A stretch of DNA of 64,000 nucleotides from Candidatus Saccharimonadota bacterium (GCA_017406405.1 JAFQYO010000011.1:35435-99434), one strand, 5' to 3'; shown: positions 13,809 to 19,513, numbered from the stretch's first letter. Translations and numbers: made by a program. Notes: generated from the sequence alone by a model not told the origin.

Positions 13809-15320
13809 ATGACAACATTATCTGATTATCGAAACGAACGTTTAAGAAAACTCGACGAAATAAAATCCCTCGGAATAAATCCCTACCCCGCGAAATCCCG
13901 TCGCGACACAAAAATCTCCGACGTCGTCGAAAAATTCGATTCCTTAAACGGAAAGACCGCGACCGTTGCCGGCCGTATCGTCGCAATTCGTTCCTTCGGT
14001 AAACTCGCCTTCATAAAAATCCGCGACAATTCCGGCGAAGTTCAGATTTTCATGCAGTCTGAAGAACCCTCTAAATCCTCCGAAAAACTGTTCAATACAA
14101 AACGCCTAAAGCTCCTTGATTCTGGCGATTTTATCGAAGCGACCGGTCTCGTCGGAAAATCCTCAACTGGAGAAATCTCTATCTTCTCAAACGCCGTCCG
14201 TCTGCTCGGAAAAGCTCTTCGTCCTCTCCCTGGTCGCGACGGTTTTTCGAACAAAGAAGAACGCTATCGCCGTCGTTACGTCGATATGAACGTAAACCCG
14301 GAAGTCCGCGAACGTCTTATTCGCCGCTCTAAATTCTGGCAAGCGACTCGCGATTTTATGAACTCTCACGGTTTCGTCGAAATAAACACCCCCGTTCTCG
14401 AACACACGACCGGCGGCGCCGACGCGACCCCGTTCGAGACGCATATGTCTGCTCTTGACGAAGATTTTTACCTCCGCATTTCTCACGAACTCCCCTTAAA
14501 ACGCCTTCTCGGCGGCGGTTTCGAAAAAGTCTATGATATCGGCCCCCGTTTCCGAAACGAAGGCGTCGATGACGAACACCTCCCGGAGCATATCGCGTTC
14601 GAGGCATACTCCGCGTACGAAGATTACGAAGACGGTATGAATCTTTACGAAGAAATGATAAAACATGTCGCAAAAGAAACCTGGGGGGCCTTAAAATTCA
14701 ACGTCTCCGGTTTCGAAATCGACCTCGGAAACGGCGGAAAGCCCTGGCCAAGAATAAAATACGCTGACCTCCTAAAAGAAAAATACAACATCGACGTCTT
14801 TAACCCCGACCGCGAAGAACTGAAGCGTATCCTCCTCGAAGAATTCAAAAAGTCCGAGGATAAAAACGACCGCTCCGCAAAGAAATCTCTCGACCATACC
14901 CTCGAAACCGCCTCGACTGAACGCCTTATTGACCATGTCTGGAAACTAATCAGAAAAACCTCCGCCGGGCCTTTCTGGCTAATTGAAGAACCTCTTTCGC
15001 TCTCACCTCTCGCAAAAGTTGTCGAAGAAAACCCGCTCGTGACTCAACGTTTCCACCCCATCATCGCCGGAACAGAAATGGGGAACGGCTATTCCGAGCT
15101 TAATGACCCCCTCGACCAACTCGCCCGTTTTAAAGAACAACAAGCCCTCCGCGACGCAGGCGATTCCGAAGCCCAAATGCTCGACCTCGATTTCGTCGAG
15201 ATGCTTGAATACGGAATGCCTCCCGCTTGCGGCTGGGGAAATAGTGAACGGAATTTTTGGATTCTTGAAGGCGTCTCAGGGCGCGAAGCCGTCCCCTTCC
15301 CAATCATCAAATCCCGCTAG
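13809..15320 (+). CDS. lysS: Lysine--tRNA ligase (class II)
   Basis: OB domain, YRRRYVD, GGADATPF, FRNEG, YGMPP. Confidence 0.98.
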   Translation: MTTLSDYRNERLRKLDEIKSLGINPYPAKSRRDTKISDVVEKFDSLNGKTATVAGRIVAIRSFGKLAFIKIRDNSGEVQIFMQSEEPSKSSEKLFNTKRLKLLDSGDFIEATGLVGKSSTGEISIFSNAVRLLGKALRPLPGRDGFSNKEERYRRRYVDMNVNPEVRERLIRRSKFWQATRDFMNSHGFVEINTPVLEHTTGGADATPFETHMSALDEDFYLRISHELPLKRLLGGGFEKVYDIGPRFRNEGVDDEHLPEHIAFEAYSAYEDYEDGMNLYEEMIKHVAKETWGALKFNVSGFEIDLGNGGKPWPRIKYADLLKEKYNIDVFNPDREELKRILLEEFKKSEDKNDRSAKKSLDHTLETASTERLIDHVWKLIRKTSAGPFWLIEEPLSLSPLAKVVEENPLVTQRFHPIIAGTEMGNGYSELNDPLDQLARFKEQQALRDAGDSEAQMLDLDFVEMLEYGMPPACGWGNSERNFWILEGVSGREAVPFPIIKSR

Positions 15321-15327
15321 TCCTCCA

Positions 15328-15539
15328 CCCGCGACTTCGGCCTCCTCAGCGCTCCATTATCATATGTGAGGAGTGGCCTCTATTACTGGTATTCTGCAGA
15401 GCCTAGCCATCGAGACTCAAATAGTCGCTATTGGACACTTCGCTCTCTTGATACCACAAGCTCAAACACTTCATATTCCCTCTCTTCACGCTTAGCTCCT
15501 CAGTACTACGGTTATCGTGGAGGAGGATTTGCGACGCTC
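15328..15539 (+). other. Cassette U1 (divergent), CLec/FISUMP-like C-terminal fragment without start codon
   Basis: RDFGLLSAPLSYVRSGLYYWYSAEPSHRDSNSRYWTLRS...PQYYGYRGGGFATL; stop-free. Confidence 0.8.
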
Positions 15540-15541
15540 TT

Positions 15542-15753
15542 CCCGCGACTTCGGCCTCCTCAGCGCCCCATTATCGTATGTGAGGAGTGGCAACTACAGC
15601 TGGAGTACCACAAACCTTAATAATAGAAGTTCACGCGGCTACTGCTGGTCATCTCGCTCCGACAACACTGAACACTCCAGCTATCTAACCTTCAACCCAT
15701 CGAACCTACTTCCTCGTTACAATGACTTTCGCGGACTCGGGTTTGCGGTGCGT
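15542..15753 (+). other. Cassette U2 (divergent)
   Basis: RDFGLLSAPLSYVRSGNYSWSTTNLNNRSSRGYCWSSRS...YLTFNPSNLLPRYNDFRGLGFAVR. Confidence 0.85.
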
Positions 15754-15754
15754 T

Positions 15755-15966
15755 CCCGCGACTTCGGCCTTCTCAGCTCCCCATTATCGTATGTGAGAAG
15801 CGGCTACTACGACTGGTACTCTACGGGGCTTAGCTATAGAGGTTCGTACGGCTGCTATTGGTCGCTTCGTTCCGCCAATACTACGGCCTCCTACTACCTG
15901 CGCTTCAACTCATCGTACTTGTACCCTCAGTACGGCGACCGTCGCGGAAACGGGTTTGCGGTGCGC
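15755..15966 (+). other. Cassette U3 (intact VR-like)
   Basis: RDFGLLSSPLSYVRSGYYDWYSTGLSYRGSYGCYWSLRSANTTASYYLRFNSSYLYPQYGDRRGNGFAVR. Confidence 0.9.
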
Positions 15967-16022
15967 AAAAAACTCCTCACCTCCCCAAACCCTCAGCCGT
16001 CTCAACTCTCAAACTCCCTCCA

Positions 16023-16234
16023 CCCGCGACTTCGGCCTCCTCAGCGCCCCATTATCGTATGTGGGGAGTGGCACCTACCACTGGGGCTCTACGGGGCTTA
16101 ACAGCAGAGGTTCGAACGGCTACTATTGGTCGCTTCGTTCCTACAGTAGTACGTACTCTGACTTCCTGAACTTCAACTCGTCGGCCTTCTACCCTCAGGG
16201 CAGCAACAATCGTGGCTACGGGTTTGCGGTGCGA
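16023..16234 (+). other. Cassette U4 (intact VR-like)
   Basis: RDFGLLSAPLSYVGSGTYHWGSTGLNSRGSNGYYWSLRSYSSTYSDFLNFNSSAFYPQGSNNRGYGFAVR. Confidence 0.9.
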
Positions 16235-16245
16235 CACAAGAACCA

Positions 16246-16457
16246 CCCGCGACTACGGCCTTCTTAGCGCCCCATTATCGTATATGAGAAGCGGCGATTA
16301 TAATCAGTCATCTGCAACACCTAGCTATAGAAGTTCACATGGCTATTATTGGACATCTCGTTCTCGTGATGTTGCATATCCATATAATTTAACCTTGCAT
16401 ACGTCATACTTAATTCCTCAGAGTTACAACTATTGCGGAACCGGCTTTGCGGTGTAT
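16246..16457 (+). other. Cassette U5 (divergent)
   Basis: RDYGLLSAPLSYMRSGDYNQSSATPSYRSSHGYYWTSRS...PQSYNYCGTGFAVY. Confidence 0.8.
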
Positions 16458-16458
16458 T

Positions 16459-16670
16459 CCCGCGACTTCGGCCTTCTCAGCTCCCCATTATCGTATGTGA
16501 GGAGTGGAGATTATGCCTGGGACTCTACGGGGCTTGTCAACAGAGGTTCGCGCGGCTACTATTGGTCGCTTCGTTCCGGCAATGCTACGAGCTCCAACGG
16601 CCTGTACTTCTACTCATCAGCCTTGGGCCCTCAGTATAGCAGCGATCGCGGCTACGGGTTTGCGGTGCAT
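16459..16670 (+). other. Cassette U6 (intact VR-like)
   Basis: RDFGLLSSPLSYVRSGDYAWDSTGLVNRGSRGYYWSLRSGNATSSNGLYFYSSALGPQYSSDRGYGFAVH. Confidence 0.9.
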
Positions 16671-16732
16671 AAAATCTCAAAGCCTAAACCTCCCTTTACA
16701 TTTCGCTTAAGCTTATATATAATATATTATAT

Positions 16733-17644
16733 ATGTCAAACAAAGTTATGATTGTTGGAACCGGGAACGTTGGCGCCTCTGTTGCCTTCTCGCTTATAAA
16801 TCAGCGGACCGCCGTAAACGAACTTGTCCTTGTCGACATCGACACGAACGACGCCGAAGGCGAAGCTATGGATCTTCGCGATGCTCTCGCTGTCGCTCCG
16901 AGCTTTTTAAAAATCAAAGCCGGAAGCTATAAAGACGCGAAGTCGTGCGACATTATCGTCATCACCGCCGGCACAAACCAAAAACCTGGCGAAACCCGCC
17001 TCAATTTATTAAAGAAAAACTCTGCGATTTTCCGCCCAATGATAAAAGGAATCATGCGAAACGGCTTTCATGGTATTTTTCTCGTCGTCACAAACCCGAT
17101 GGACGTTTTGACTTTCCTAACCTGGAAATATTCCGGTCTCCCTTCTGACCATATTCTCGGCTCCGGAACCGTCCTCGATTCCGCTCGCCTCCGTCTCCGT
17201 CTTTCCGAAAAACTAAACTTAAACCCGAAATCGATTCACGCTTTCCAAATCGCCGAACATGGCGACTCCGAATTTGCGCTCTGGTCCTCAGCAAACGTCT
17301 CTGGTGCCCCGATTTCTAGCTTCCTCTCAAAACCTGCTCTCGCCGAAATTGAAGATTACGCCCGAAACGAAGCTTACGAAATTATAAACAAAAAGGGCGC
17401 GACCTATTATGGAATCGGCGTCTGCGTAGCCCATATCATCCAAGCCGTTCTGAACGACGAACGTCGCATCCTTTCCGTTTCCTCTTATGACGACTGTGCC
17501 GGAGTTTTTGCCGGCTTCCCAACCGTCGTCGGTCGTCGCGGCGCGATTAAACGCCTCGACCTCGAATTGTCCGAAGAAGAAGGAATAAAATACCAAAAAT
17601 CCATAAACGCCTTGAAATCCGCCATAAAATCCGTTCGTTCGTGA
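16733..17644 (+). CDS. ldh: L-lactate dehydrogenase
   Basis: VGTGNVG, ITAG..QKPGETRLNL, TNPMD, GSGTVLDSARL, EHGDS, KGATYYGIG. Confidence 0.92.
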   Translation: MSNKVMIVGTGNVGASVAFSLINQRTAVNELVLVDIDTNDAEGEAMDLRDALAVAPSFLKIKAGSYKDAKSCDIIVITAGTNQKPGETRLNLLKKNSAIFRPMIKGIMRNGFHGIFLVVTNPMDVLTFLTWKYSGLPSDHILGSGTVLDSARLRLRLSEKLNLNPKSIHAFQIAEHGDSEFALWSSANVSGAPISSFLSKPALAEIEDYARNEAYEIINKKGATYYGIGVCVAHIIQAVLNDERRILSVSSYDDCAGVFAGFPTVVGRRGAIKRLDLELSEEEGIKYQKSINALKSAIKSVRS

Positions 17645-17656
17645 TAAAATAAACTT

Positions 17657-19513
17657 ATGAAATCCTTAAAATTCTTTCTTAGTTTATTTATATCTCTATT
17701 TCTGAGCCTCCTGCCTTCGCTCGCCTTCGCCGACACTAATAGTTTTTATTTCGAAGATGCGACCTTTGACTATTATTTATCATCGACCGAAACTGGCGCC
17801 TCGACCATGCGGGTCGAAGAATCCCTTACTGCGGTCTTCCCGACCTACGCCCAAAATCACGGCATCATACGCTGTATCCCTTATTCTTATCGCGGAGTAA
17901 AATCCCTCGACGAGTCAAGTTTCTCCGTCACAAGAAACGGAGTTTCAGAGCCCTTCACGACCTACCAAGACGACTCTCTCACCTGCCTCCGAATCGGCTC
18001 GGCAAATAGCTACGTGACCGACAAACAAGTTTATAATATCTCCTACGTTCTAAACAACGTTATCCTCGCCCCAGATAATTCTCCCTATCAAGAACTCTAT
18101 TGGGATACAAACGGAACCGAATGGTCTCAGCCTTTTTATTCTTTAACCGCGAACATCCATCTCTCCGACCCGCTTATTAACGCCTGGAACGGCGAAACTT
18201 CCTGCTATGTCGGCGCCCAAGGCGCAGGCGGAAGCGACGCGATGTCTCGATGCGAAACCTCCATCTCCGAAGACAAGTCCGTTATCACTTTTTCTTCCAA
18301 AAACCTCGCCCCGAGAGAGAACTTGACTTTCGACCTCCGTTTTATGCCCGAAACATTCTACATTAAAAAATCCCCAGCGGCCCTTGTCTTGGCCGCCATC
18401 GGCGGAATTGTCGCCCTTATCCTCGGTTTCTCCGGCTATAAATGGTATCAGGCCGAAAAAAGAATAAAAGAAAAGAAAAAACTTGCAAAAGAAAAAATCG
18501 TCCCCGTCCAATACACTCCCCCGAAAGATTTAACCGTCGCCGAAGCCGGAACCGCTTATCTAAAGTCCACAAAAGACCTTAAGGTCGCGACTCTCATGGA
18601 ACTCGCCATAAAGCACCATATTGAGCTCAAACGCGGAGAAAAGAAAGTCTTCGGCGGCTATCACTGGATTATTCACGTCAAAAACACAACAAACCTCACT
18701 TCCGAGCAAACCATCGTTCTCGAAATCCTCAACGGAGGCAATTCTGTCCACGACGGCGACTCAATTGAAGTAAAACGCCACACCGCGACAACCCACCTAG
18801 AAAAACTCGGCCATGATTTCGATCGAGACCTTAAAATCTCCCTAAAGTCCAAAGGCCTCTTCGAAGAGAAAAAGTCGAACAGCTCCTCCTCAAAATCAGC
18901 TCCCTTCCTTATCTTCTTCATTCTTGTTATCGTCTTCGGCTTTATTGCGCCGATAATCTTGAAAAACATTAACTTCACTTCTTTCTTCGGACTTTTCTCT
19001 CCGGAAATTCAATCGTTCCTTATTGTCGGCGGCTTCTTCCTCTTTATGATATACATAATCACCCTCATTATCATTTCTATAAACATCCAAAAATACAAAG
19101 AACGCACTCTAGAGGGCATAAAAGTCACGAAATACCTCGATGGCCTGAAAGAATACATGACTCTCGCCGAGAAAGACCGCCTAAAGTTCCTTCAGAGCGT
19201 TAAAGGCGTCGACACTTCAAATCAAGGAATCGTAAAATTATACGAAAAACTCCTCCCTTATGCTGTTCTCTTTGGTGTCGAAGAATCCTGGATGGACGAA
19301 CTCTCTAAATACTATAAGCTCGACGACGTCTCCGAGCCATATTGGATGTACGGCGCCTATCGTTTTTCCGCTAACGACTTCCGCGCCTTCTCTTCCTATG
19401 CTTCGAGTTCAATTTCGAGCAGTGTTGCTTCCAGCTCCTCCGGCAGCTCTGGTGGCGGAGGCGGCGGCTTCTCTGGCGGCGGAGGGGGCGGCGGCGGAGG
19501 CGGAGGTTGGTAA
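17657..19513 (+). CDS. DUF2207-family membrane protein
   Basis: Signal peptide, ELYWD..G..W, central TMs, LLPYAVLFG, C-terminal GGGGFSGGGGGGGGGGGW. Confidence 0.85.
   Translation: MKSLKFFLSLFISLFLSLLPSLAFADTNSFYFEDATFDYYLSSTETGASTMRVEESLTAVFPTYAQNHGIIRCIPYSYRGVKSLDESSFSVTRNGVSEPFTTYQDDSLTCLRIGSANSYVTDKQVYNISYVLNNVILAPDNSPYQELYWDTNGTEWSQPFYSLTANIHLSDPLINAWNGETSCYVGAQGAGGSDAMSRCETSISEDKSVITFSSKNLAPRENLTFDLRFMPETFYIKKSPAALVLAAIGGIVALILGFSGYKWYQAEKRIKEKKKLAKEKIVPVQYTPPKDLTVAEAGTAYLKSTKDLKVATLMELAIKHHIELKRGEKKVFGGYHWIIHVKNTTNLTSEQTIVLEILNGGNSVHDGDSIEVKRHTATTHLEKLGHDFDRDLKISLKSKGLFEEKKSNSSSSKSAPFLIFFILVIVFGFIAPIILKNINFTSFFGLFSPEIQSFLIVGGFFLFMIYIITLIIISINIQKYKERTLEGIKVTKYLDGLKEYMTLAEKDRLKFLQSVKGVDTSNQGIVKLYEKLLPYAVLFGVEESWMDELSKYYKLDDVSEPYWMYGAYRFSANDFRAFSSYASSSISSSVASSSSGSSGGGGGGFSGGGGGGGGGGGW

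Follow-up and report, generated by a model that had tools for sequence, protein, structure and literature searches.

Diversity-generating retroelements (DGRs) are understood as mutators that overwrite their targets in place and keep no history, and silent-cassette gene conversion is known, apart from these, as the way in which some pathogens vary their surface. The DNA considered here is a stretch of 64,000 nucleotides from a Candidatus Saccharimonadota bacterium (C8:35435-99434 of genome G000; hereafter the window). Between its genes lysS and ldh, at 15328-16670, are six same-strand units, each of approximately 212 bp and composed of a conserved 50-bp header, a variable middle and the conserved tail GGGTTTGCGGTGCG. 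These units are frozen, promoter-less, 5'-truncated copies of a DGR variable region (VR), and they probably serve as silent donors for segmental gene conversion in the manner of vls and pilS, on top of a DGR.

In Borrelia burgdorferi, the one expressed surface gene, vlsE, is accompanied by head-to-tail vls cassettes that lack promoters and start codons and cover the variable part only. The same features are seen here, as are the short conserved boundaries, the occasional frame changes, the donors that stay unchanged and the segments of variable length in the expression site. Unlike vls, the variation in the present cassettes is made by a retroelement, through adenine mutagenesis from a template, and the recipients are also DGR targets. 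Five arrays and two singletons are scattered among housekeeping genes, rather than being located beside the expression site, and switching is read from assemblies, not from experiment. The pilE/pilS system of Neisseria likewise has dispersed silent loci, with one to six tandem 5'-truncated copies and conserved boxes. Conversion into the expressed gene is RecA-dependent in Neisseria; RecA is also present in G000. No G-quadruplex (G4) or small RNA (sRNA) initiator was found here, the product is a FISUMP tip, putatively of the lectin type, rather than a pilin, and there is the additional layer of the DGR.

Canonical DGRs (Bordetella phage BPP-1 mtd/avd/TR/brt, where TR is the template repeat; Treponema denticola; Legionella; and the CLec2/Fib_succ_major-class targets, Wu et al. 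2018, PMC5758913) share with this system a reverse transcriptase (RT) with an SQ motif, differences between TR and VR that are restricted to adenines, remote targets and a common 3' element. The VR is likewise C-terminal, in a domain that is here putatively lectin-type by sequence family. In contrast to these, most of the copies here belong to no gene, have no homing element, escape rewriting and recombine with the live ones, and the partner of the RT has no Avd match. The published DGR surveys consulted report at most about eight targets, nearly all within open reading frames (ORFs) (PMC5758913, PMC3521204). The sapA system of Campylobacter fetus is similar in that a unique promoter and gene body are joined to alternative promoter-less copies via a conserved segment. 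There, however, whole ORFs are swapped by inversion, while the linkages here come from metagenome contigs and the cassettes are much shorter. No gene-less, tandem or silent arrays of DGR cassettes were found described in the literature searched.

The retroelement and its frozen copies

The host genome has 697,629 bp in 20 contigs. A search of the whole genome using tblastn and blastn identified 29 headers and 30 unit-like stretches. There are five arrays, at C8:32.9k (2 units), lysS-ldh (6), C14:26k (6), C14:54k (6) and C17:21k (4). Outside these, C4 has two singletons, contig ends hold three copies, and one header-less copy is at C4:946-1121. The cassettes that are not being rewritten number 26, including the six between lysS and ldh. 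The layout is that of a silent-cassette system, with one gene of 1031 amino acids (aa), these 26 cassettes, two long stubs and a header with a mean column identity of 93% across 28 genomic copies.

The header-less copy is 176 nt long, contains 56 adenines and has AAC or AAT (Asn) at every position that is variable among the units. Because of these Asn codons and the missing header, it is identified as the template repeat. No template repeat was found within 11 kb of the RT; this one, on another contig, was located via its Asn-rich translation. The VRs at the contig ends (C4:125, C8:50 and C14:97573) differ from the template at 16–20 of the 56 adenines and at none of the 120 non-adenine positions. 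Since their mismatches are confined to template adenines, these three copies have the DGR signature.

A canonical 3' element of approximately 65 nt is present at only six places in G000, none of them in an array. Its carriers are the three contig-end VRs, the template, the singleton C4:15579 and a template-less duplicate of the template's flanks. With the exception of C4:15579, which retains it, all of the cassettes (25 of 26, including all those in arrays) are without this element. A 3' homing element resembling the initiation of mutagenic homing (IMH) site was sought in the six lysS-ldh units and was not present; the last bases of the units are GCGGTGCG, and the next header follows directly. 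The template-less duplicate lies between VR and template (L006:590-745, on C4) and consists of the upstream leader of the template and the 3' element, the template body having been deleted. Its spacing is alike in other samples.

The RT, which is of DGR type, is encoded by an ORF of 372 aa at C14:38072-39190 (RVT_1, 48.7 bits), with the motifs IGNLSSQ and YVDD. Its best match in the PDB is 8ub7, an RT of 328 aa that we take to be the Bordetella DGR bRT (E=9e-23, compared to 3.5e-6 for a group II maturase). Relatives of the RT are found in Candidatus Saccharibacteria records from goat gut and similar sources. The SQ dipeptide has been used as a criterion for RTs of the DGR clade (PMC3521204). 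An ORF of 264 aa (C14:37277-38071; L001:475-1269) ends exactly at the RT start, and this gene adjoins the RT in seven related loci, at 30–64% identity. Its product has no match in Pfam, NCBIfam or the PDB and was not recognised as an Avd-type accessory; it is a candidate non-Avd accessory protein of the DGR. In G080, one of these relatives, the order is compact: target, VR, template and RT.

Overlaps of the contig ends in G000 connect the three writable VRs, via a 124-bp repeat, to one gene body on C9 (at least 974 aa) and to two start-less stubs of 48–54 codons. In another sample (L101), the gene, VR, template and a methyltransferase are on one contig, giving the full gene length. This target, a surface protein, passes TIGR02145/FISUMP with 49.7 bits against a cut-off of 41.65, and its VR lies in the last 60 residues before the stop. 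By sequence family, the VR would be at the C-terminus of a ligand-binding domain of the C-type-lectin type. The six units align to the last third of the FISUMP profile, positions ~117–175 of 176, in agreement with the C-terminal resemblance to such proteins that the earlier note had proposed from motifs. A further open frame of 1123 aa with two FISUMP domains (G000:C14:74818-76995; L002, L003, L007) is distant from the cassettes and is a non-diversified paralogue.

The earlier note had also stated that RT, TR and full-length target were missing from the window. This is correct for the window and does not extend to the genome, where all three are present elsewhere, so the array is not one that lacks a cognate gene, TR and RT. 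Its attribution of the units to a DGR VR is supported by the template, the RT and the adenine-only mismatches in those VRs that have the 3' element.

The template is unchanged in four to five other samples, and the VR next to it differs every time, at 18–22 adenine sites with 0–1 other changes. The DGR is active, yet not on the arrays, and only VRs that keep the 3' element are rewritten. Cassettes in arrays have 3–45 non-adenine mismatches with the template (those of the lysS-ldh units are given in Table 1). Of the 19 young (little-diverged) cassettes, 18 have T at template position 93 (T93), a position at which C is found in the template and in every active VR. The arrays are also stable between samples. 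The six-unit C14:54k array has 0–1 mismatch over 4.8 kb in five other samples, and the two-unit array after tsf (C8:32.9k) is identical in at least two. L097, an independent assembly of another sample, matches 15282-17700 of the window at 99.3%, with units 1–5 identical.

T93, the lost 3' element and the identity across samples mean that an older template allele gave rise to the cassettes, which are frozen. Stubs that have no start codon are still rewritten, therefore it is the homing element, rather than coding context, that decides where the DGR writes. The suggestion in the earlier note of an archive of past retrohoming products stands to the extent that the cassettes are frozen DGR products. 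Two proposed origins were rejected. Retro-copying, from cDNA of the target mRNA or of the template, is at odds with the header, which lies outside the template homology and has eight adenines that are not mutagenised. A CRISPR-like polar archive would have an age gradient, and non-adenine divergence is not monotonic in any array.

Cassette segments in writable copies

The comparison covered six full-length target alleles, all of other samples. Over its first 2860 bp, the target gene has 0–1 single nucleotide polymorphism (SNP) among four of them, and the 50-nt header differs at 2–6 positions. In the L101 gene, the header and the first 84 nt of the VR (120 nt) are identical to the silent cassette C8:32883. 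Within this tract are four header SNPs, located beyond the template homology, and G38A, a non-adenine change; the 3' half is template-type, with C93. L121 has cassette-type changes at positions 4, 15, 18 and 21, and L125 has T93. L150, a contig of 561 bp from another sample, is a writable stub in which ~128 nt match cassette C14:27287 except at two header positions. Its tract has a Trp-to-Tyr scaffold change that could not be encoded from the template, and a template-type 3' half follows. Overall, the cassette tracts in writable VRs are ~90–120 nt. In these metagenome contigs, segments of cassettes occur in the putative expression site and in a writable stub, while the donors stay unchanged. 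Silent donation, which the earlier note had raised as one possibility for the array, agrees with these cassette-identical tracts, their non-template markers and the invariance of the arrays.

The donors do not change from sample to sample and each recipient is particular to its sample, which makes transfer from cassette to writable site the economical direction. Graph chimeras are disfavoured, because the 5' junctions of L101 and L150 need 21-mers in which unique gene sequence runs into header SNPs of the cassette type. The first 60 nt of L150 are a perfect palindrome at the AT-rich upstream region of the stub, probably an assembly-end hairpin artefact. Linkages at the VR ends of L101, L122, L121 and L150 were compared with the contig ends C9_R, C8_R, C4_L and C8_L of G000. 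The C4-type downstream end follows the gene body in L101 and L122 but a stub in L150, and the C8-type follows the gene body in L121. Such differing linkages could be whole-3'-end switching by recombination or assembly joins.

Transfer would take place by RecA-type segmental gene conversion, anchored 5' in the header and resolved either in the conserved central scaffold islands or in the 14-nt tail. The DGR would then re-mutagenise the 3' half from the 3' anchor. A new cassette may arise when a duplicated VR copy loses its 3' element, and arrays would grow and shrink by unequal crossing-over between headers. For an epibiont, the adaptive value may be a store of earlier binding-tip variants alongside de novo mutagenesis.

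Several observations weigh against the cassettes being donors. All signs of transfer were read from metagenomes assembled from short reads, in a repeat family, where chimeric contigs are possible, and the direction of transfer is deduced from donor invariance. The three writable VRs of G000 itself carry no cassette marker. Cassette tracts are present in only 4 of ~10 distinct writable-VR alleles, and none of the tracts observed derives from the six lysS-ldh units. The 3' homology, the 14-nt tail, is short for RecA-type exchange. In addition, part of the reason for the stop-free frames could be that the cassettes originated recently from expressed copies.

A rather unlikely alternative to donor function is that the cassettes are non-functional litter: duplicates of the target 3' end that lost the homing element, were amplified by unequal crossing-over and recombine by accident. 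Their invariance between samples and old template allele would fit this, as would the lack of promoters and start codons, the mixed frames, the empty site in sister species and the writable VRs of G000 that are without cassette input. The cassettes do not, however, have the features of decaying sequence. When the observed number of non-adenine substitutions of each unit was placed at random on it, 14 of the 26 cassettes were expected to contain an in-frame stop; none does. The product of the probabilities is 1e-12, and for the seven divergent units alone the stop-free probability is ~4e-8, values that are inflated by shared ancestry, though in our judgement not enough to explain the result. 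Every indel seen in a cassette is a multiple of three. At scaffold codons (those without a template adenine), the ratio of nonsynonymous to synonymous change (pN/pS) is 0.49, below 1. This suggests that the reading frame of the cassettes is under selection rather than undergoing junk-like decay.

The header is also ~3x more conserved than the body at synonymous sites, with a synonymous divergence in the seven divergent units of 0.15 in the header versus 0.45 in the scaffold body. This places the conservation or homogenisation of the header at the DNA level. Further points against litter are that 26 copies are kept in a streamlined 0.7-Mb genome, that up to 95 stop-free copies are kept in relatives and that cassette tracts recur in writable copies.

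Layout and turnover of the lysS-ldh array

The six same-orientation units of the earlier note were reproduced, with their starts (Table 1) and with spacers of 2, 1, 56, 11 and 1 bp. Pairwise identity among them is 60–81%, and Tandem Repeats Finder did not detect the array, because its copies are too divergent. The 56-bp spacer recurs between units of L096 and, as judged from ORF translations, in the C14:26k array. Unit 5, the most divergent, has no stop and no indel (P(no stop)=0.018), and its header departs from the consensus header at 4 of 50 positions. No terminator-like site was predicted between lysS and ldh, and the sole strong promoter-like site in this interval is that of ldh. Neither the array nor the template locus contained a known RNA family. 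No site-specific recombinase was seen beside the arrays, every flank of which consists of housekeeping genes.

Table 1. Features of the lysS-ldh interval, with positions in the window and differences of each unit from the template repeat
Feature	Position	Strand	Frame	Adenine-site mismatches	Non-adenine mismatches	Remarks
lysS (lysyl-tRNA synthetase)	13809-15320	+				ORF list; TAG stop; Pfam tRNA-synt_2 on the L096 lysS
Unit 1	15328-15539	+	0	30/56	34/120	Conserved header and divergent VR body; 7 bp past the lysS stop, same frame as lysS; stop-free, P(no stop)=0.07 under neutral substitution
Unit 2	15542-15753	+	1	21	27	Divergent; in frame with unit 3
Unit 3	15755-15966	+	1	25	4	Young; one non-adenine mismatch is the old-template marker T93
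56-bp spacer	15967-16022	+				3' end resembles the gene sequence directly 5' of the header
Unit 4	16023-16234	+	2	23	4	Young
Unit 5	16246-16457	+	0	24	45	Most divergent; in frame with unit 6
Unit 6	16459-16670	+	0	28	7	Young
ldh promoter-like site	16695-16723	+				TTTACA, 17 nt, TATAAT; 11/12 matches
ldh (L-lactate dehydrogenase)	16733-17644	+				Downstream flank; ORF list; Pfam Ldh_1_N/Ldh_1_C on the 99%-identical P0001

Two side features of the arrays were observed. The first unit is in frame with the upstream gene, with a stop codon between them, after both lysS (TAG, 15318-15335) and tsf (TAA, G000:C8:32868-32890). These are the two arrays oriented like their upstream gene, and the chance of this is ~1 in 9. 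Every header also contains a 7-bp inverted repeat, CT(C/T)CT(C/T)A ... TGAG(G/A)AG (here 15342-15373), across the start of the template homology. Over the 28 copies, 99.5% of cells pair, with one covarying pair (CG 16, UA 6, UG 6, never C-A), and this covariation was reached by 1 of 500 shuffles. The changes are synonymous and are compatible with a sense-strand hairpin. An equivalent hairpin was not seen in the headers of G066.

Cassettes of different arrays share mosaic segments, with runs of 22–26 variable columns compared to a median of 7. Between G000 and the 99.9%-identical L097, 14 of 18 differences are located at 16575-16667, in the 3' half of unit 6, and they leave the T93 and TCATCA markers intact. 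As the old markers are retained, the change in unit 6 is segmental conversion and not rewriting from the template. The number of units at this site varies between strains, a comparison that had been proposed in the earlier note. In L096, where lysS is 96.6% identical, there are three units, with the lysS junction, the 56-bp spacer and the 3' flank as here; the divergent units 1, 2 and 5 are missing. The sister species G019 and G059 have a gap of only 50–56 bp between lysS and ldh, an empty site. G046 has two units there in the opposite orientation, and G014 has two other FISUMP-type cassettes.

Translation of the units into lectin-tip peptides with a role of their own, whether they are made as small proteins or through read-through from lysS, is very improbable. 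In its favour, the frames are open, lysS is not followed by a predicted terminator, unit 1 continues the frame of lysS, as the leading unit of the tsf array does that of tsf, and gene callers list ORFs of 81 aa from a Met just upstream of the header in longer copies. However, as the earlier note had said, none of the six units has a start codon, and no ATG, GTG or TTG with a ribosome-binding site is present in the units of this array. There are frame shifts between units, a stop codon parts each housekeeping gene from the first unit, and a unit, covering so little of the FISUMP domain, is unlikely to fold alone.

Current DGR targets, each rewritten in place as in a multi-VR DGR, are an explanation that is largely refuted and has scarcely any remaining probability. 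The variable positions are those of the template adenines, with 21–30 of 56 changed per unit, and orthologous positions differ between G000 and the 96.6%-identical L096, as rewriting would also allow. Rewriting would, however, erase T93 and the other non-adenine mismatches, and the canonical 3' element is in no array. Units 1–5 and two other arrays are identical across samples whose live VR always differs, and the sole recent change, in the 3' half of unit 6, retains the old markers. Chaining of VR alleles from a variable population during assembly was a concern, since the genome assembly breaks at VR repeats and six contig ends fall in the 3' region of the target. Such an artefact is refuted by the unique flanks on both sides of the array and by independent assemblies of several samples, made with two assemblers, in which this or other arrays are recovered with identical bases; L097 contains a near-identical lysS-ldh array.

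Distribution in the genus and significance

Unit-like matches were found in 94 of 121 sampled congeners, ten of which have 20 to 95, and the RT in 80 of 121. G066 has a 10-kb cluster of ~25 units on alternating strands (G066:C7:16869-26742; L044). Units with a short header occupy one strand of this cluster; those on the other are longer and more divergent and have a conserved ATGAATGTAGGAAG leader. In G079 (L107-L120) there are 95 cassette-like matches, none with a stop, that make up ~2.7% of the genome. The RT and an Asn-rich template were not found in this 97%-complete assembly. The cassettes of G079 may form a system that has no DGR, or the contig with the DGR may be absent from the bin. 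G066 and G079 each have two discrete classes of 5' truncation, every class with its own highly conserved leader.

It is possible, as a tentative proposal, that the arrays are an adaptive memory coupled to a mutator, in which the DGR would write new binding-tip variants, loss of the homing element from a duplicated VR copy would store them as frozen cassettes, and header-anchored conversion into writable sites, with 3' re-mutagenesis, would recall them. Such a loop would serve the specificity of host recognition in a cell that lives as an obligate epibiont, and would be recombination-only in lineages such as G079.

Cassettes make up to ~3% of some genomes in the genus, and assemblies break at them. 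This cassette load and these breaks matter for annotation and for DGR surveys that are restricted to the vicinity of the RT. DGR mutagenesis and silent-cassette conversion appear to be joined here in one family of loci. If this is true, cells with a DGR would be able to store and reuse past solutions, going beyond random search. This is a candidate explanation of how ultra-small epibiotic Saccharibacteria, with genomes of 0.7 Mb, may track changing host surfaces.

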